From a virus (Duplodnaviria > Heunggongvirae > Uroviricota > Caudoviricetes), in the IMG/VR virus record IMGVR_UViG_2671180643_000016, positions 1 to 11,733 of that record: a stretch of DNA of 11,733 nt; one strand, written 5' to 3'. Within the stretch, counting starts at the first letter, position 1, and each line of letters starts with the position of its first letter. Positions 5,495-11,733 of the stretch are shown here, one piece after another. A model generated the notes under the pieces. That model saw nothing but the letters and a program-made list of their open reading frames with translations. It searched no databases and was not told the DNA's origin. The translations under genes and the position numbers were made by a program.

Positions 5495-5573
5495 GTTACC
5501 GTTGAGGTAATGATTATGCGTATTTGGTTTGATGTCAATAGATATGAGTTAAAAAAATTACCCATAAGGTAAT
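5495..5573 (-). promoter_or_regulatory. pL-like leftward promoter with two flanking 17-bp operator palindromes
   Basis: Minus-strand -35 TTGACA (5533-5538) with a -10-like CATAAT/TAATCA 14-16 bp downstream. Flanked by GTTACCGTTGAGGTAAT (5495-5511) and ATTACCCATAAGGTAAT (5557-5573); operator centres 62 bp apart. Confidence 0.55.
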
Positions 5574-5580
5574 CTTGATG

Positions 5581-5608
5581 GCAATAAAAAAGCCGCCATG
5601 AGGCGGCT
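5581..5608 (-). terminator. Rho-independent terminator downstream of the repressor gene
   Basis: On the minus strand: stem AGCCGCC, loop UCAU, stem GGCGGCU, followed by UUUUUUAUU; lies 22 bp downstream of the repressor stop (5630-5632). Confidence 0.6.
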
Positions 5609-5629: not shown

Positions 5630-6214
5630 TTATTGTTTGTTTTTTTCGTTCTGGTTGATGACAAATTCAATGTAACTTTCGATCTTTGCTTTCTCGGGTT
5701 CGGGTAACAATGCGTAGCGCGAGCGGTCATAGTTGATGGTCGCAGGGTCGTGCGGGTGAATCAGTAATTCATAGCCGTGACGCCCGAATGCGGATGCAAC
5801 ATTCTCCAGGGTGGAAATGGAAACGCTGACCTCATTGTTTAACAGGCGGCTGATTGTTACCTGGGCGACGCCGGATGCGCGGTGAAGTTTTCCCTGCGTT
5901 GAAAGGTCGCGGCTTTCGCTCATCCAGCGTTCCAGGTTGTGAGCCGCCAGCTGACCAATGTCGCTTGGGCCGACAGGCTGAAAACCTTCCTGAGAAAGCG
6001 AGCGATCGATATCAAGCCAGTTACGGGGTTTATTGGCGGCAGCTTCAATTTTTCGCGCAACCTGGTCGCCGATAACCTTCTTGCCAAGAGCCCAGCGGTT
6101 TACCAGATTTGCCTGAGTTCCAAGTTTTTCTGCCATCCGCGTCTGAACACCATTGAATTCACGGTCGATCAAGTCGTTGAGATTTTGCCTGCGGACGTCC
6201 TGGATACTTTTCAT
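5630..6214 (-). CDS. Prophage repressor, XRE-type HTH, with a second HTH-like segment and no S24 peptidase domain
   Basis: 194-aa ORF. N-terminal HTH (QTRMAEKLGTQANLVNRWALGKK) resembles 434/P22-type repressors; C-terminal half has another HTH-like stretch (VAQVTISRLLNNEVSVSISTLENVASAFG) and no Ser-Lys/GDSM autocleavage signature. Divergent from the Cro-like gene across an operator region. Confidence 0.7.
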   Translation of the reverse strand: MKSIQDVRRQNLNDLIDREFNGVQTRMAEKLGTQANLVNRWALGKKVIGDQVARKIEAAANKPRNWLDIDRSLSQEGFQPVGPSDIGQLAAHNLERWMSESRDLSTQGKLHRASGVAQVTISRLLNNEVSVSISTLENVASAFGRHGYELLIHPHDPATINYDRSRYALLPEPEKAKIESYIEFVINQNEKNKQ

Positions 6215-6268: not shown

Positions 6269-6333
6269 ATTACCCAACAGGTAAATGCACCCCATAGGTA
6301 ACTATCCTTGATTTTTGTTACCTTATGGGTGAA
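6269..6333. promoter_or_regulatory. OR-like tripartite operator region with divergent promoters
   Basis: Three 17-bp sites of the ATTACC-N5-GGTAAT family: ATTACCCAACAGGTAAA (6269-6285), weaker TGCACCCCATAGGTAAC (6286-6302), GTTACCTTATGGGTGAA (6317-6333). Candidate rightward promoter -35 TTGTTA (6315-6320), 17-bp spacer, -10 TATTAT (6338-6343). Confidence 0.55.
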
Positions 6334-6368: not shown

Positions 6369-6599
6369 ATGAGCGATAACGGACATTTCGATTTCAAAAA
6401 GCACTGGCTTGCACTTACTCCGGATGAGCGTGAAGCCTTCGCACAGGAAGCCGGAACGACGAGTCACTATATCCAGACTCACTTAACAGGTAAGCGCAAA
6501 ATGCCAGGTAAGGTATTGATGAATGGGCTTTTTAAAGCCTGTAAAACAAGACAATGGCTGCGCTCAAAAGCAGAACTGGCATACTTCTTCTACTCATGA
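6369..6599 (+). CDS. Cro-like small DNA-binding regulator (putative)
   Basis: 76-aa ORF divergent from the repressor, directly downstream of the operators, with a possible HTH (REAFAQEAGTTSHYIQTHL). AGG 8 nt upstream of the ATG; followed by a terminator. Confidence 0.55.
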   Translation: MSDNGHFDFKKHWLALTPDEREAFAQEAGTTSHYIQTHLTGKRKMPGKVLMNGLFKACKTRQWLRSKAELAYFFYS

Positions 6600-6620: not shown

Positions 6621-6644
6621 AGACCGCCATCCGGCGGTCTTTTC
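6621..6644 (+). terminator. Rho-independent terminator after the Cro-like gene (tR1-like position)
   Basis: Stem AGACCGCC (6621-6628), loop ATCC, stem GGCGGTCT (6633-6640), then TTTT. Confidence 0.6.
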
Positions 6645-6749
6645 ATATCTATTCGCACCTCAAAGGTAATAAAAAACCAAATGTGGTTGATCTTTTTTTT
6701 GTGTCAGCACAAAATGACCGTAATCCCAATACTAATAACAGGGCTTACC

Positions 6750-6965: not shown

Positions 6966-7781
6966 ATGAGCAGACATGCAACAGATTGGGCTTGGGAGAC
7001 AGATCCAGGCAGCTCATCATTAAAGCTCATACTGCTCTCGATGGCTGACAGAGCCGATGAATATAACCTCTGCTACCCCAGCATAGAACGCCTCGTTAAA
7101 GACACTTGCCTGAATAAAAAAACCGTGCAGGCCGGGCTTATATCGCTCATGAAAATGGGGCTTATTTCAGATACCGGAGAGAGAAAGGGAGCGACAAAAA
7201 GAGTGCGGGTTTTCTCTCTTAATATAACCAAAAACGGGAACATTAAAGGCAACCTAGATGGGTGTAATGAACCCGAAAACGGTAATGTTCCCGAAAACGG
7301 GAATATACCCAAAAACGGGATGTTGAATGATCCCAAAAACGGGATGTTGAATGATCCCAAAAACGGGATCCAGAACCAGTCATATAACCAGTCATTTAAC
7401 CAAGAGAGGGAGAGCAGGACAAAAACCGGGGATTCTGTGCCTCATGACCCCGGCGCAAACAACGCCGTGATGAATAACTTTGTTCCTCCTGGTGGGCCAG
7501 GGCAATTAGGCAAATTTGTCATGCATGAACAATGGCAGCCATCAGATGACTTTCTTCGGAAAAGCTCATTGCAGGGGATCTACCTGGACAGTCTGCCAAC
7601 GGCACAGGAACTTGCAGAGTTCAGAATTTACTGGATGGCTGAGGGTAAGGCATACCATCAGGCACAGTGGGAGCAGAAGCTGGCAAGGCGGCTGCAGATT
7701 AGCAGACAGAAGCAATCAACATTACCTGATAACAACGTTCCGCACTGGAACAGCCCTGAAGCATGGGAGGATTTCTTGTGA
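6966..7781 (+). CDS. Replication initiation protein (lambda O functional analogue; N-terminal winged-helix-like, C-terminal DnaT-like)
   Basis: 271-aa ORF. N-terminal HTH-like region (LKLILLSMADRADEYNLCYPSIERLVKDTCLNKKTVQAGLISLMKMGLI), repetitive linker encoded by the iterons, C-terminal FRIYWMAEGKAYHQAQWEQKLARRL. Immediately upstream of the P-like gene with overlapping stop/start. Confidence 0.75.
   Translation: MSRHATDWAWETDPGSSSLKLILLSMADRADEYNLCYPSIERLVKDTCLNKKTVQAGLISLMKMGLISDTGERKGATKRVRVFSLNITKNGNIKGNLDGCNEPENGNVPENGNIPKNGMLNDPKNGMLNDPKNGIQNQSYNQSFNQERESRTKTGDSVPHDPGANNAVMNNFVPPGGPGQLGKFVMHEQWQPSDDFLRKSSLQGIYLDSLPTAQELAEFRIYWMAEGKAYHQAQWEQKLARRLQISRQKQSTLPDNNVPHWNSPEAWEDFL
7227..7369. 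repeat. Iteron array inside the replication initiator gene (putative ori)
   Basis: Direct repeats with core CC(C)(A/G)AAAACGG(G/T)A at 7227-7241, 7271-7286, 7289-7304, 7307-7321, 7331-7345, 7355-7369, spaced 18, 18, 24 and 24 bp. Includes an exact 24-bp tandem duplication GATGTTGAATGATCCCAAAAACGG (7319-7342 and 7343-7366). Confidence 0.6.
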
Positions 7782-8563
7782 ACAACGTTTTTACCGCGAT
7801 ACAAAACCGTGACGGAGAAGCCCTTTCTCGCATGTCAGGTTATGATCATCAGTACGTCAACAATGACAATGTGGTGAACATGTCAGCAGAGAGGCTTGTT
7901 GATGCCCTTTTCAAACAGCTGAAACAACTGTTTCCGGCGGCAGTGGTAACCAACCTGAAGACGCCAGAGCAGGAAGTCGCTGCAAAACAGCAGTGGATTG
8001 CTGCGTTTGCCGAAGGGGGGATCCGAACCCGTGAACAGGTTTCTGCTGGTATGCGCCACGCCCGCGCCAGTGAATCTCCGTTCTGGCCGTCGCCAGGGCA
8101 ATTTATCAAGTGGTGCAAAGACAGCAAGATGGTTCTTGGCGTCACCATTGACGATGTGATGGCGGAGTTTCACCGGTACAGCAAGGAAAAAAGTTTATAT
8201 CCTGGTGGTCCCGAAAGATTCCCGTGGCGGCATCCGGTTATGTACTGGGTCGTATGTGATACCCGCCGTGCAATGTATCAGCGCCAGCTTAGCGAGATTG
8301 AGGTTGAGAAACACGCGCGCAGGTTGCTCGATGATTGGGCGAAAAAGGTGGCTTCCGGACAGCAGATACCCGATCCGGTGATCAGCATACAGGCAAAGCC
8401 AGAACCCATGAGTACACCTCCGGACACAGGGAGAGACGTTTACCATCCACCAGGGCGAAGTTTCGGGTGCATGCCTAACGCCGCCACCCTGGGGGGAATA
8501 ACACCTGCGCAGTGGCTGATGGAGGAATACAGGCGAGGAAAGGCAGCAGGATTTATCAAGTAA
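7778..8563 (+). CDS. P: Replication protein P-like (DnaB helicase loader)
   Basis: Clear resemblance to lambda P as I recall it (QQWIAAFAEGGIRTREQVSAGMRHARASESPFWPSPGQFIKWC vs lambda RQWVLAFRENGITTMEQVNAGMRVARRQNRPFLPSPGQFVAWC). Preferred start GTG 7778 with SD GGGAGG 8 nt upstream, overlapping the upstream stop (GTGA); alternative ATG 7763 lacks an SD. Confidence 0.85.
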   Translation: MNNVFTAIQNRDGEALSRMSGYDHQYVNNDNVVNMSAERLVDALFKQLKQLFPAAVVTNLKTPEQEVAAKQQWIAAFAEGGIRTREQVSAGMRHARASESPFWPSPGQFIKWCKDSKMVLGVTIDDVMAEFHRYSKEKSLYPGGPERFPWRHPVMYWVVCDTRRAMYQRQLSEIEVEKHARRLLDDWAKKVASGQQIPDPVISIQAKPEPMSTPPDTGRDVYHPPGRSFGCMPNAATLGGITPAQWLMEEYRRGKAAGFIK

Positions 8564-8599
8564 TACCAGCGCGATAGCGCATTTTTTTACGTCTATATG

Positions 8600-8678
8600 A
8601 TTACCTTATAGGTAATAAAATATTCTAATTTCTATTGATTTTATGTCTTATGTGGTTTTTAATTACCTAAGGGGTAAA
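8600..8678 (+). promoter_or_regulatory. Operator-flanked promoter upstream of the DUF1064-like gene (same architecture as pL)
   Basis: ATTACCTTATAGGTAAT (8600-8616; perfect palindrome) and ATTACCTAAGGGGTAAA (8662-8678) flank -35 TTGATT (8635-8640), 17-bp spacer, -10 TTTAAT (8658-8663). Operator centres are 62 bp apart, as at pL. Confidence 0.55.
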
Positions 8679-8680
8679 TC

Positions 8681-9025
8681 ATGAGAAAACAGATACAGGC
8701 TCTTGGTCGACTCAAAACAGGCCAGATGAACAAAACAGAATCTGCGTATTGCCAGCACCTTGAGCTGCGTAAACGTGCAGGAGAAATCGTCTGGTATCGA
8801 TTTGAGGGTATCAAGTTGCGGTTAGCTGACAACACGTTCTATACGCCCGATTTTGCTGTGATGCTCGCCACCGGCGAGATGGAACTGCACGAAGTGAAAG
8901 GTTTCTGGACCGACGACGCCAGGGTGAAAACCAAAGTCGCCGCAGATCAGTATCCGTTCCGAATCATCGGGGTAACGGTTAAGCCAAAGAAAGCAGGTGG
9001 TGGCTGGAACATCGAAGAGTTCTGA
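8681..9025 (+). CDS. DUF1064-like phage protein, probable PD-(D/E)XK nuclease fold
   Basis: 114-aa ORF with D...E-x-K-like arrangement (TPDFAV ... ELHEVKG). SD AAGGGG upstream of ATG 8681. Family assignment is from memory. Confidence 0.6.
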   Translation: MRKQIQALGRLKTGQMNKTESAYCQHLELRKRAGEIVWYRFEGIKLRLADNTFYTPDFAVMLATGEMELHEVKGFWTDDARVKTKVAADQYPFRIIGVTVKPKKAGGGWNIEEF

Positions 9026-9086: not shown

Positions 9087-9719
9087 ATGGAAAGTAATAT
9101 CAAAGGGTTAGTTGCCGCCGGGCATGAGATGGCTTCGGAACTGAAAGCAGAATGTGGTGCCGTTGATATGCGCAGTGTGGCAAAGCTGATCAGCGATTTG
9201 GCAACGCAACTGGAAGTGCAACTGGTGCGTGCTAATGCGCTGGCCGAAGACCACCAGAGAGCGATTGAGTCAATTAAGCAGGCTGATTCGGCTGTTAAGT
9301 TGGCACACGAGAAGTTTTCGGCGCTGGCGGCGGAGAATGCGGGGCTGAAACACGCAATGGCCGTAACTCTTGAGCATGTGTCGGTCACGGATGCAGGGCA
9401 GGCTGGTGTTGCTGCAATGATTATCAACGATGCCCTGCACCACAGCGAAACTCCAGCCACCGATGCTTTCCTGGCTGAAATTCGTGCGGAAGCACGCAAC
9501 GAGGGGATTAACTATACCGCAAGCCGTCTTGCTGCTGCTTTCAATCACGGATTTATCAATAAGTCTTTACGTGAAGTTTTCGACGTTACACGCATGATTC
9601 TGTCAGCAAAAGAAGAGTTAGCTAATGAATCGCATCCGATTGATGGCCTGTCCGGTGAATATGCAGAGAAATCCCTTGAAGAATGGGCGGAACGGCTTCG
9701 CAAAGGAGGCAGCCAGTGA
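9087..9719 (+). CDS. Hypothetical protein (210 aa), Ala/Leu/Glu-rich, predicted helical
   Basis: SD GAGGG 7 nt upstream of ATG 9087; stop TGA overlaps the GTG start of the downstream methyltransferase. No recognisable catalytic motifs. Confidence 0.55.
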   Translation: MESNIKGLVAAGHEMASELKAECGAVDMRSVAKLISDLATQLEVQLVRANALAEDHQRAIESIKQADSAVKLAHEKFSALAAENAGLKHAMAVTLEHVSVTDAGQAGVAAMIINDALHHSETPATDAFLAEIRAEARNEGINYTASRLAAAFNHGFINKSLREVFDVTRMILSAKEELANESHPIDGLSGEYAEKSLEEWAERLRKGGSQ

Positions 9720-10189
9720 CTGGACATGCAGCAATCCTCGACATGTGCTGTGGCAGTCGCATGTTCTGGTTCGATAAGAATGACGACCGGGCGATATTTA
9801 GCGATATCAGAAAGGAAGAGCACACATTGTGTGATGGACGACGCCTGATTATCAGTCCTGATCTGATAGCTGATTTTCGTGCACTACCATTTGCAGACGC
9901 ATCTTTTTCGATGGTTATATTCGACCCTCCGCATCTTGAGCGTGTTGGTGATAACGCCTGGATGGGAAAGAAATATGGACGGCTGAATAAAGATACCTGG
10001 CGTGATGATTTGCGGCAGGGATTTAAAGAAGCCTTTCGTGTGTTGCGTCCATCCGGAGTTCTGATTTTTAAATGGAATGAAACGCAAATACCTGTTCGCC
10101 AGATATTGGTACTGACCGACAGAAAACCTGTTATCGGTCAACGAACAGGAAAAAACGATAAAACCCACTGGATTATTTTTATGAAATAG
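9716..10189 (+). CDS. Small DNA amino-methyltransferase (phage Dam-like, putative N6-adenine)
   Basis: AdoMet-binding-like motif ILDMCCGSRMF followed by the catalytic-type motif FDPPH. Start GTG 9716 with SD AGGAGG 7 nt upstream, overlapping the upstream stop (GTGA). The ORF-track start at 9683 has no RBS. Confidence 0.6.
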   Translation: MTGHAAILDMCCGSRMFWFDKNDDRAIFSDIRKEEHTLCDGRRLIISPDLIADFRALPFADASFSMVIFDPPHLERVGDNAWMGKKYGRLNKDTWRDDLRQGFKEAFRVLRPSGVLIFKWNETQIPVRQILVLTDRKPVIGQRTGKNDKTHWIIFMK

Positions 10190-10335
10190 GCATCCAGTGA
10201 GTAGGTTCGTAAGGTTACAGATACGTATATCTGAATAATTAAATTCAGTTCTGTAAATAAAATTTAATCCTTAACCGGAGGGATTCCTGCACCCTCAGAA
10301 CATCAGGATACCGCCCGAAAGGGCGGTAATGAAAA

Positions 10336-10803
10336 ATGGCTGAATTAACCAAATGGCTACAAAACACGATTACCGGAATTGAAACGGTAGTAGACGATAA
10401 ATCGTTTGTATGTGATGAAATAGTATTCAAAATCGATGTGGTTAAAAACGTACTTACCGCATTTAAAGTCGCGCTGGTATCGCTGGAAGCCGAACCGGTG
10501 ACATGGCGATATCGCTACGTGAGAAAAGGCGTTACGAACTTTCAGGAGAAGCCGTGGGTTGGTGACTGGAAATATGTACCGACAAAAGAGAATTGCAACG
10601 ACAGGCCGAACTATGAAATTCAGGCGTTATTCACGGCCCAGCCTGTGCCACTGACACCCGAAGGATTGATTAAAGCGGTGCGCTTCTATGAACAGGTTAA
10701 GAGTGAAAATCCGCCAGTCGAAACCGGAGCATGGAAAGACGCTGTTGACTGGGTGCTCAAAGAGGCTTGTCAGGCTGTAAACATTGGCATCAAAGGAGAG
10801 TGA
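10336..10803 (+). CDS. Hypothetical phage protein (155 aa) sharing an N-terminal domain with the 10999 gene
   Basis: N-terminus LTKWLQNTITGIE...NVLTAFKVALVSLEA is paralogous to LTKEWLQNTITSIE...NMLTALKIALASLAA in the downstream 244-aa protein. Confidence 0.55.
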   Translation: MAELTKWLQNTITGIETVVDDKSFVCDEIVFKIDVVKNVLTAFKVALVSLEAEPVTWRYRYVRKGVTNFQEKPWVGDWKYVPTKENCNDRPNYEIQALFTAQPVPLTPEGLIKAVRFYEQVKSENPPVETGAWKDAVDWVLKEACQAVNIGIKGE

Positions 10804-10804
10804 G

Positions 10805-10996
10805 ATGAACGGACAAATATCAATTGTTCGACCGGGAGCATGTGACGATCGCGAGATACGAATGATTATTCGTCTGGCGATGGGGAAAACAATAACAGCT
10901 CTCATTACTCCTGAAAATCTCGCATTAGCATTAACAGGAAAGTCAGACTTGCCAGTAGAGCTAAAGCTGCGAAATGTTGAGATTAAGGTGAAATAG
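10805..10996 (+). CDS. Hypothetical small protein (63 aa)
   Basis: ATG 10805 with SD AGGAG 8 nt upstream; positioned 1 nt after the upstream stop and 2 nt before the next start. Confidence 0.4.
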   Translation: MNGQISIVRPGACDDREIRMIIRLAMGKTITALITPENLALALTGKSDLPVELKLRNVEIKVK

Positions 10997-10998
10997 TT

Positions 10999-11733
10999 AT
11001 GAATACTCTTACCAAAGAATGGTTACAGAACACGATTACCAGCATTGAGTCAGCACGGGATGAAATACCGTTCGGACTCGATGAAGATCAAAACAACATG
11101 CTTACCGCATTAAAAATTGCACTGGCATCACTGGCAGCAGTATCGGATGAACGAGCAGCCTATGAATTATTTATGGAGAAGCGTTTCGGGGAATCTGTAG
11201 ATCGCCGTAGGGCAAAAAATGGCGATAGAGAATACATGGCATGGGATATGGCGCTTGGCTGGATTATCTGGTGTCACCGCGCCGCCATGCTTCAGGGTAG
11301 CCAACCTGTAAGCCAAACTTACAACTTGCCAGAATTAATCGAAGGCATGGAAGTTTCCATTGATATAAGCACTTGTGATGCTGATTTAGGTAATCGCTAT
11401 TTCGGCACCGTCACCGAAGCGTTAGAACTTGATACAGCCAAGAATGGTTACATCCTCTTGGTTCAGGACGCAGAGCCAAACTTCGATGTAAATGGCAACT
11501 CTCCGGGAACTCCGGATAGTTGGATAAGCTGTAGTGATCGAATGCCTGAAAAGGGCCAGAACGTGCTTATTTCGGTGAATTTCGATAGCTCTCTGGTTGA
11601 ACCGCTAATATGCTCCGCACGCTATACCGGAAGCACCTTTCGGCGCGGAGATGCAACGATTAAGCCGGGTAATGGTATTGAGCAAGCAACTCACTGGATG
11701 CCGCTACCGGAACCGCCGCAGGAGGTGAAGTGA
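10999..11733 (+). CDS. Phage protein with paralogous N-terminal domain and DUF551-like C-terminal domain
   Basis: C-terminal DSWISCSDRMPEKGQNVLISV ... ATHWMPLPEPP resembles the DUF551 signature as I recall it; N-terminal about 45 aa paralogous to the 10336 gene. Stop TGA 11731-11733. Confidence 0.6.
   Translation: MNTLTKEWLQNTITSIESARDEIPFGLDEDQNNMLTALKIALASLAAVSDERAAYELFMEKRFGESVDRRRAKNGDREYMAWDMALGWIIWCHRAAMLQGSQPVSQTYNLPELIEGMEVSIDISTCDADLGNRYFGTVTEALELDTAKNGYILLVQDAEPNFDVNGNSPGTPDSWISCSDRMPEKGQNVLISVNFDSSLVEPLICSARYTGSTFRRGDATIKPGNGIEQATHWMPLPEPPQEVK

Follow-up and report, generated by a model that had tools for sequence, protein, structure and literature searches.

What purpose do repressor operators serve ahead of genes that lie beyond the replication genes of a temperate phage? 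The question is raised by positions 8569–8680 of an 11,733-nt stretch of viral DNA (IMG/VR record IMGVR_UViG_2671180643_000016; hereafter the window), in which two copies of the 17-bp palindrome found around the immunity repressor gene rep bracket a putative promoter that we call P3. The original prediction took this site pair to be a third operator-flanked promoter, geometrically identical to the leftward promoter PL, and to place the operon downstream under direct repressor control. In our view, the data are likely to be explained by a self-contained, terminator-insulated promoter cassette at 8569–8680 that is repressed directly by Rep.

The upstream palindrome, O-a (ATTACCTTATAGGTAAT; ATTACC TTATA GGTAAT), matches the family consensus without a mismatch, and the downstream palindrome, O-b (ATTACCTAAGGGGTAAA; ATTACC TAAGG GGTAAA), differs from it at one of 12 positions, an outer base. 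Re-reading of 8400–8900 reproduced every coordinate and sequence originally given for 8600–8678. When the whole window was searched with the pattern ATTACC-N5-GGTAAT, allowing at most two mismatches and taking 200 shuffles as the null, five matches were found against 0.36 expected, and none of the shuffles reached five. The matches are the two PL sites (5495 and 5557), the first of the operators of the rightward promoter PR (OR1, 6269), O-a and O-b, with no others; both palindromes do, as had been proposed, belong to the operator family of the immunity region. The sites at 5495, 5557, 6269, 6286 and 6317 surround rep (5630–6214). Membership of O-a and O-b among the Rep operators is indicated by the TTACC-N5-GGTAA core, by the linkage of the motif in cis to rep and by conservation at the orthologous position.

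The centres of O-a and O-b are 62 bp apart and lie 29.5 and 32.5 bp, respectively, from the centre of the −35 hexamer. All three distances equal those of the PL module on the minus strand. When PL and P3 modules from five phages are aligned, no gaps are needed, and the two operators and the heptamer CTATTGA are invariant; the claim of geometrical identity to PL is borne out exactly in both operator spacing and register. CTATTGA occurs exactly twice in the window, once at PL and once at P3. The −10 hexamer of P3 is in the same register as the −10 hexamers of PL (AATCAT, AATTAT, GATTAT), and PL, with a promoter score of 10 of 12, likewise lies behind a terminator, that of rep (5609–5590). Since 62 bp corresponds to about 5.9 helical turns, O-a and O-b would face approximately the same side of the DNA, a spacing compatible with cooperative binding, in which one tetramer might occupy both sites.

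The module is conserved well beyond the window. Eleven relatives, found by BLAST or via the Rep protein, come from Escherichia, Salmonella, Enterobacter, Klebsiella, Citrobacter, Erwinia, Superficieibacter and Scandinavium. All 11 contain a hairpin followed by seven Ts, O-a, CTATTGA, the −10 hexamer, O-b and an ATG 1–4 nt further on, while the gene upstream differs. The O-a core TTACC/GGTAA and CTATTGA are invariant in all of them, and O-b lies 62 bp from O-a in ten and 61 bp in one. The orthologous intervals of phiV10, SPN1S, BUCT554 and epsilon15 have both operators 62 bp apart, as do five of the six prophages found via Rep (from Superficieibacter, Erwinia, Klebsiella, two Citrobacter species and Scandinavium), the sixth having a spacing of 61 bp. 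A second sample was drawn from viral contigs selected by the DUF1064 protein alone and comprises 80 loci with 61 distinct upstream sequences. All 80 show O-a without core mismatches, O-b with 0–1 mismatches and CTATTGA in register. Nucleotide diversity is 0 at all ten O-a core positions and 0.47–0.65 at the O-a centre, and the −35/−10 spacer, ATGTGG included, is strongly conserved.

In a motif scan of IMG/VR viral contigs the bait was the upstream half alone (O-a, 16 nt, CTATTGA). This returned 150 modules with full context, about half of P3 type and half of PL type, and in 147 of them a second operator follows at exactly +62. Because the O-a half-sites and CTATTGA are built into the bait, the conservation of these two elements rests on the protein- and BLAST-selected sets.

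The operator pair travels with the Rep system rather than with the DUF1064 gene, because the DUF1064 genes of Pseudomonas F116, Burkholderia Bcep176 and Vibrio X29 (81, 70 and 68% amino-acid identity, respectively) lie inside operons and have no such sites. A tblastn search with Rep gave no match in these three phages of other genera. SPC32H, in contrast, has an identical pair, 62 bp apart, ahead of its DUF1064 gene. In a de novo palindrome search the operator palindrome ranks as the top repeated palindrome of the Rep-bearing loci, and at loci with homologues of the Rep N-terminal domain only (L014–L018) no repeated palindrome was found. The segment containing the replication P gene, the cassette and DUF1064 (8400–9000) is present, nearly always in the chromosome, in 530 of 5,426 complete Escherichia coli genomes; with about one in ten of these genomes carrying the module, this type of prophage is very common.

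By nucleotide identity and gene order the window is an epsilon15/phiV10-like (Uetakevirus) prophage. The region is 96–97% identical to phiV10, TL-2011b, ZX5 and other E. coli Uetakeviruses and about 82–85% identical to Enterobacter BUCT554 and Salmonella SPN1S/SPC32H. The genes are arranged as integrase, leftward recombination operon, PL, terminator, rep (minus strand), OR, Cro-like gene, terminator, an open reading frame (ORF) of 89 codons, DnaT-like initiator, lambda-P-like protein, hairpin with seven Ts, site pair, DUF1064, Eae-like ORF, DNA methyltransferase and DUF551 protein. Rep is 99.5% identical to phiV10 p40 and matches SPC32H Rep (PDB entry 5D50) over its full length (E = 3.9e-42; 42% protein identity); a Pfam domain search of Rep found no S24 peptidase domain. 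Rep is described as a DNA-binding tetramer in which the DNA-binding pairs come from different dimers and which is dismantled by the antirepressor Ant (PMC9638917). Its C-terminal domain is of a type seen in DNA-looping tetramers, and as recently as 2023 the mechanism of gene repression by Rep was said to have 'not been extensively characterized' (PMC9986798). Lytic transcription is abolished when Rep is overexpressed in ZX5, a close relative (PMC9782041), an outcome which is consistent with Rep control and is compatible with either direct or indirect action.

From the above we infer Rep binding, promoter activity, terminator function and looping at P3, which would combine as follows. The hairpin with its T run would end the PR-driven replication operon, and O-a, the A/T-rich stretch, the −35 and −10 elements and O-b come next. 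In a lysogen, tetrameric Rep of the SPC32H type would occupy both operators and block RNA polymerase, with O-b lying over the edge of the −10 element, the predicted start and the ribosome-binding site, a classic occlusion position. One tetramer would probably hold both operators, clamping the promoter in a small loop, as at PL. Rep would be inactivated by Ant and not by self-cleavage; once Ant had taken Rep away, P3 would fire alongside PL and PR and express the resolvase and nin-like genes, which in the complete relatives extend as far as a regulator gene that immediately precedes the packaging genes.

The promoter elements themselves are of mixed quality. The −35 hexamer, TTGATT, agrees with TTGACA at four of six positions and is followed by a 17-nt spacer, within the 16–18 nt expected for sigma-70. 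The −10 hexamer, TTTAAT, has T at position 6 as well as T at position 2, where the sigma-70 pattern has A. The description of P3 as a sigma70-like promoter is upheld by the −35 hexamer, the spacer and the PL register, but not by the −10 hexamer or the promoter scanner. An alternative pair, TTGAAA-18-TAAATT, which has both A2 and T6 and scores 9 of 12, is found in epsilon15-type relatives only. Between O-a and the −35 hexamer the motif AAAATAT is kept in nine of the 11 relatives, PL having a T-tract in that place, and the A/T-rich stretch at 8617–8631 is possibly UP-element-like. A promoter-like match on the minus strand (AAGACA-16-TAGAAT, 8649–8622) was considered and set aside, as phiV10 has only a weaker version of it and epsilon15 and SPN1S have none. 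A search for known RNA families around the site pair found none.

Directly past the stop codon of the lambda-P-like replication gene, the hairpin has the form GCGC-GATA-GCGC. Judged against an intrinsic terminator with a GC-rich stem of at least 5 bp and a U-tract, it offers four GC pairs followed by seven Ts, and the terminator scanner makes no call. The GCGC stems and the T run are invariant in all 11 relatives, while the loops differ (GATA, AGTA, AGCA, GGCA, GCAG, GGAA and GAAG), and the phiV10 record labels the orthologous hairpin a putative rho-independent terminator. The element is probably a weak intrinsic terminator that shields the cassette from PR read-through. Its conservation just upstream of P3 fits a unit controlled on its own and not via read-through. 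Independence of the P3 unit from antitermination, which was part of the original prediction, is plausible.

Several observations weigh against a Rep-repressed, insulated P3. The fold of the hairpin RNA (−8.4 kcal/mol, z = −1.47) is not significant on its own and its stem comprises just four GC pairs, so that PR read-through could provide much of the expression. The consensus promoter scanner makes no call for TTGATT-17-TTTAAT because TTTAAT lacks A at position 2 of the hexamer. The −11 A is missing from the P3 −10 hexamer of every relative (TTTAAT or TTAAAT), and this, together with the silent scanner, means that P3 is possibly weak or in need of an activator. The leader from the predicted start would be only 10–12 nt long, with the Shine–Dalgarno sequence at its extreme 5′ end. 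A single palindrome accompanies every full-length Rep homologue found, at identities as low as 41%, which gives no operator/repressor co-variation to score. Finally, a 62-bp loop is tight, and it is just as permissible that two tetramers bind independently or that Rep bridges to distant operators.

Some of these observations would also be expected if O-a and O-b were genuine Rep operators with a mainly architectural or roadblocking role and the downstream genes were transcribed mostly from PR through a leaky terminator. Rep tetramers could bridge to OR or to the PL operators (OL), 2.3–3.1 kb away, or to other operators and so stabilize repression, or the sites could halt residual read-through like the stoperators of L5; OL–OR looping in lambda and the flanking sites of coliphage 186 are precedents for an architectural role. 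The non-canonical −10 hexamer, the weak hairpin and the very short predicted leader fit such a role, as do the looping-type tetramerization domain of Rep (PMC9986798) and the single operators before the head, lysis and int genes, not all of which lie beside clear promoters. We nevertheless consider it unlikely: the operators, CTATTGA and the −10 hexamer occupy positions that correspond base for base to those of PL, with its 10 of 12 promoter score, O-b sits exactly on the −10/+1 region where occlusion would be expected, the spacing is fixed at 62 bp, which long-range bridging does not need, and with PR already repressed in the lysogen a roadblock would contribute little.

The persistent lack of the −11 A alongside a strongly conserved −35/−10 spacer could instead indicate a delayed or middle promoter dependent on an activator encoded by the phage, for which products of early PL or PR genes, such as a PerC-like activator or the protein of the 89-codon ORF after cro, would be candidates. 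Rep or the Cro-like protein would then merely modulate P3, and the operators would serve mainly for turn-down by the Cro-like protein late in infection; this protein falls in a repressor family (phrog_35) and presumably shares operators with Rep, as in lambda. We find this explanation improbable, as no activator site was identified and the architecture of P3 equals that of PL, which looks constitutive. ATGTGGTT, tried as a second regulatory motif, occurs at 6681, 8650 and 10436, a count (3 against 0.5 expected) that 3 of 200 shuffles also reached and that is not significant, and one of its copies is a start codon. As for chance palindromes, or palindromes conserved for another reason, the argument in favour is that the O-b centre doubles as a Shine–Dalgarno sequence and is purine-rich in all relatives, in agreement with a second role as a ribosome-binding site, so that O-b might be kept solely for translation. 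The half-sites beside the Shine–Dalgarno sequence, however, are invariant while the centre that bears it varies, O-a is equally conserved without any coding or translational role, the shuffles never gave five matches, and the sites are missing from the three DUF1064 loci without a Rep match. Chance is effectively excluded.

The features of the cassette, the downstream genes and the immunity region are listed in Table 1.

Table 1. Positions of the P3 cassette, the rightward unit and related features in the window.
Feature	Position	Strand	Remarks
Hairpin GCGC-GATA-GCGC and seven Ts	8569–8588	+	Directly past the stop codon of the lambda-P-like gene
O-a, upstream operator	8600–8616	no strand	Perfect consensus match; centre 29.5 bp upstream of −35 centre
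A/T-rich stretch AAAATATTCTAATTT with AAAATAT	8617–8631	+	Between O-a and −35
−35 region CTATTGATT	8632–8640	+	Hexamer TTGATT, 8635–8640
Putative −10, TTTAAT	8658–8663	+	17 nt past −35; overlaps first two bases of O-b
O-b, downstream operator	8662–8678	no strand	Covers −10 edge, predicted start (~8668–8672) and Shine–Dalgarno sequence
DUF1064 gene, first of unit	8681–9025	+	Pfam DUF1064, E = 2.9e-7
Rest of rightward unit in window	9087–11733	+	The four ORFs below
Eae-like ORF	9087–9719	+	
DNA methyltransferase	9683–10189	+	phrog_954, E = 7e-87
ORF of unknown function	10336–10803	+	
DUF551 protein	10999–end of window	+	
PL module	5495–5573	−	Operators 5557–5573 and 5495–5511; TTGACA 5538–5533; 17-nt spacer; AATCAT 5515–5510
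rep, repressor gene	5630–6214	−	194 residues; two helix-turn-helix-like domains; Pfam HTH_3
OR operators	6269–6285, 6286–6302, 6317–6333	no strand	Around rightward promoter of Cro-like gene; OR2 and OR3 weaker
Hypervariable positions	8592–8599, 8607–8610, 8629–8630, 8669, 8672; 5564–5566, 5574–5579; 5599–5600; 6630; 6292		Diversity 0.4–0.65

The Shine–Dalgarno sequence of the first gene, AAGGGG (8669–8674), falls inside O-b, and the ATG is at 8681. The DUF1064 protein, named first in the DUF1064-unknown-methyltransferase operon of the original prediction, matches phrog_190, 'Holliday junction resolvase' (E = 7e-43), and the methyltransferase assignment for 9683–10189 stands as first made. The first gene after the cassette encodes DUF1064 in seven of the 11 relatives and a RuvC-like Holliday-junction resolvase in the other four, the epsilon15 gene in this slot being 35987–36451. 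Since a RuvC-like gene takes the same slot by apparent non-orthologous replacement and the PHROG match agrees, the DUF1064 protein is a probable junction- or structure-specific nuclease. The next operator lies 2.4–4.2 kb downstream in the protein-selected loci, and in phiV10 the unit continues to a gp49-like transcriptional regulator and a terminator immediately before terS.

The centres of the operators are as variable as their half-sites are constant. Among 51 distinct protein-selected sequences, each sharing 97% identity or more with the window across 3.7 kb, nucleotide diversity at third codon positions has a mean of 0.036 and a 99th percentile of 0.50. At the O-a centre (8607–8610) it is 0.47–0.65, with three or four alleles per site, and in the adjoining half-sites it is zero. 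High variability also marks the distal flank of O-a (8592–8599), two positions in the O-b centre, two terminator loops and, at the upstream PL operator, both the centre and the distal flank; among the operator centres, those of the upstream operators of P3 and PL stand out most. Pairwise divergence is 0.36 at the 13 hot positions of P3 versus 0.026 in the neighbouring 587 nt, and parsimony on a local tree assigns 9–16 changes to each hot site compared with a mean of 0.86 at third codon positions. The operator centres change more than tenfold faster than synonymous sites, in a clade in which Rep is nearly invariant. Local hypermutability of palindrome centres and selection on operator affinity are candidate causes. 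Gene conversion between PL and P3 was rejected as a source, there being no shared haplotypes of flank and centre. A within-phage matching of the O-a and upstream PL operator centres (permutation p < 1e-4) was not used, as it reflects mainly clade structure (a Salmonella-type AAAAx clade versus the rest). If confirmed, these centres would make a handy natural system for studying the evolution of non-contacted operator bases.

We also note that Rep proteins merely 41–45% identical, of the E. coli type versus the Salmonella, Klebsiella and Citrobacter types, go with one operator consensus (compared were the window, 5630–6214, epsilon15 [L004], 32690–33286, and the relative L006, 33765–34361). Variable operator centres or Ant specificity might bear on heteroimmunity among these phages.

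Two further regions of the window deserve mention. The Cro-like ORF (6369–6599; phrog_35 'transcriptional repressor', E = 6e-13) is followed by a strong terminator (6621–6640 plus a T run) and by a half-degenerate operator, CGCACCTCAAAGGTAAT, at 6654–6670, shortly ahead of the next ORF (ATG at 6681). Salmonella-type relatives have two better operator sites after the cro terminator, 71–72 bp apart, and 6621–6670 may be another insulated, Rep-sensitive unit boundary. Because of this degenerate site, P3 can be called the third operator-flanked site only with respect to the good sites in the window. The DnaT-like initiator gene contains tandem repeats of an 18-bp unit (3.1 copies, 7264–7318), a 24-bp unit (2.6 copies, 100% identity, 7308–7369) and a 12-bp unit (2.4 copies, 7374–7402), which look like origin iterons; compare gene O of lambda.

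In the wider genus, operators outside the immunity region turn out to be the norm. The complete genomes of epsilon15, phiV10, SPN1S and BUCT554 contain 15–18 sites with at most two mismatches against about one expected, and about nine loci, with sites at equal positions, are shared by all four. These are OL, OR, the region after the cro terminator, the P3 pair, two adjacent sites at terS and one site each upstream of the head operon, in the ant/tail-fibre intergenic region, upstream of the lysis cassette and upstream of int. The sites before the terS, head, tail-fibre/ant, lysis and integrase genes are at 11–45, 2931, 19895, 24703 and 26881 in epsilon15 and at 86–120, 3251, 20876, 24691 and 26869 in phiV10. 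Such conservation implies a genome-wide set of putative Rep targets, that is, a Rep regulon, and the ant/tail-fibre site suggests that Rep may also act on the promoter region of its own antirepressor.

The epsilon15 record (NC_004775.2 / AY150271) already annotates protein_bind 'repressor' features at seven perfect palindromes. One of them, 35906–35922, is the O-a orthologue, and the rest include sites at OL and ahead of the terS, head and tail-fibre genes. The record carries no annotation of the partner site at 35968–35984, of the OR sites, of a promoter or of the 62-bp pairing, and the fixed bracket common to PL and P3 appears to be undescribed in GenBank annotation and in secondary summaries. 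With about nine conserved loci and a prediction already present in the epsilon15 annotation, a third operator region is what the genus normally has, and the framing of P3 as an exception to the canonical lambdoid plan falls away. Anyone annotating such prophages should expect additional operators as the rule and should not mark them as anomalous.

The single-tetramer loop, the recurrence of cassettes across the genome and the fast-evolving operator centres can be joined into one scheme, which we offer tentatively and hold to be somewhat doubtful as a whole. The 62-bp bracket, a mini-loop of six turns, would be the natural substrate of the 'trans' Rep tetramer; the whole lytic programme would be run from insulated, Rep-repressed cassettes released at once by Ant, with no antitermination cascade; and diversifying selection or local hypermutability would act on the non-contacted operator centres. 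Taken separately from this scheme, the regulon of about nine loci and the shared 62-bp bracket provide a concrete and testable DNA substrate for the structural 'trans-tetramer' model, and the regulon would explain how distal genes are silenced without lambda-style antitermination. The phages concerned include serotype-converting and reporter phages (phiV10, epsilon15 and SPN1S) and SPC32H, the phage of the Rep/Ant switch.

Among known systems, the closest are the relatives themselves. The epsilon15 genome was reportedly described by Kropinski et al. in 2007, and its repressor sites have the same 17-bp palindrome, with the O-a orthologue placed after the replication gene and ahead of the rightward gene that comes next; this next gene is RuvC-like in epsilon15 and DUF1064 in the window. 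The Rep/Ant lysis–lysogeny switch of SPC32H (PDB entries 5D50 and 5D4Z) is said to be the work of Kim & Ryu in 2013 and Kim et al. in 2016. SPC32H has a homologous Rep and the identical 62-bp pair, but its Rep is 42% identical to that of the window and its record has no annotated operators.

Phage lambda shares 17-bp palindromic operators placed on promoter elements, divergent PL and PR promoters around the repressor gene and a Cro-like gene past PR. Its operators are confined to OL and OR, and its distal genes are reached via N and Q antitermination. The operators of lambda are in tandem, whereas those described here form a 62-bp bracket, recur at about nine loci and would bind a non-cleavable tetramer that is taken off by an antirepressor. 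The present circuit is not of the lambda type, because Rep is of the SPC32H type and lacks the S24 (LexA-like) cleavage domain and because operators occur at about nine loci in the relatives; lambda is the wrong yardstick for this site pair.

Precedents for distal binding by an immunity repressor are CI of coliphage 186 at pB and at FL and FR, gp71 of mycobacteriophage L5 at its stoperators and the CB operators of N15-type phages. The immunity repressors of 186, L5 and N15 directly silence transcription units far outside the immunity region. The L5 stoperators, which are asymmetric, block elongation from inside transcribed regions, while pB of 186 has a single operator. The repressors and motifs of these three phages are unrelated to those of the window, and none is known to have a fixed 62-bp bracket. 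With respect to mechanism, the nearest likenesses are Rco of pLS20, which has a p53-like tetramerization domain (PMC9986798), LacI and GalR, each a tetramer with two DNA-binding units that acts on pairs of operators set in helical phase around a promoter. Looping by Rep at P3 would follow the same principle, with 62 bp placing it at the short extreme of known loops.

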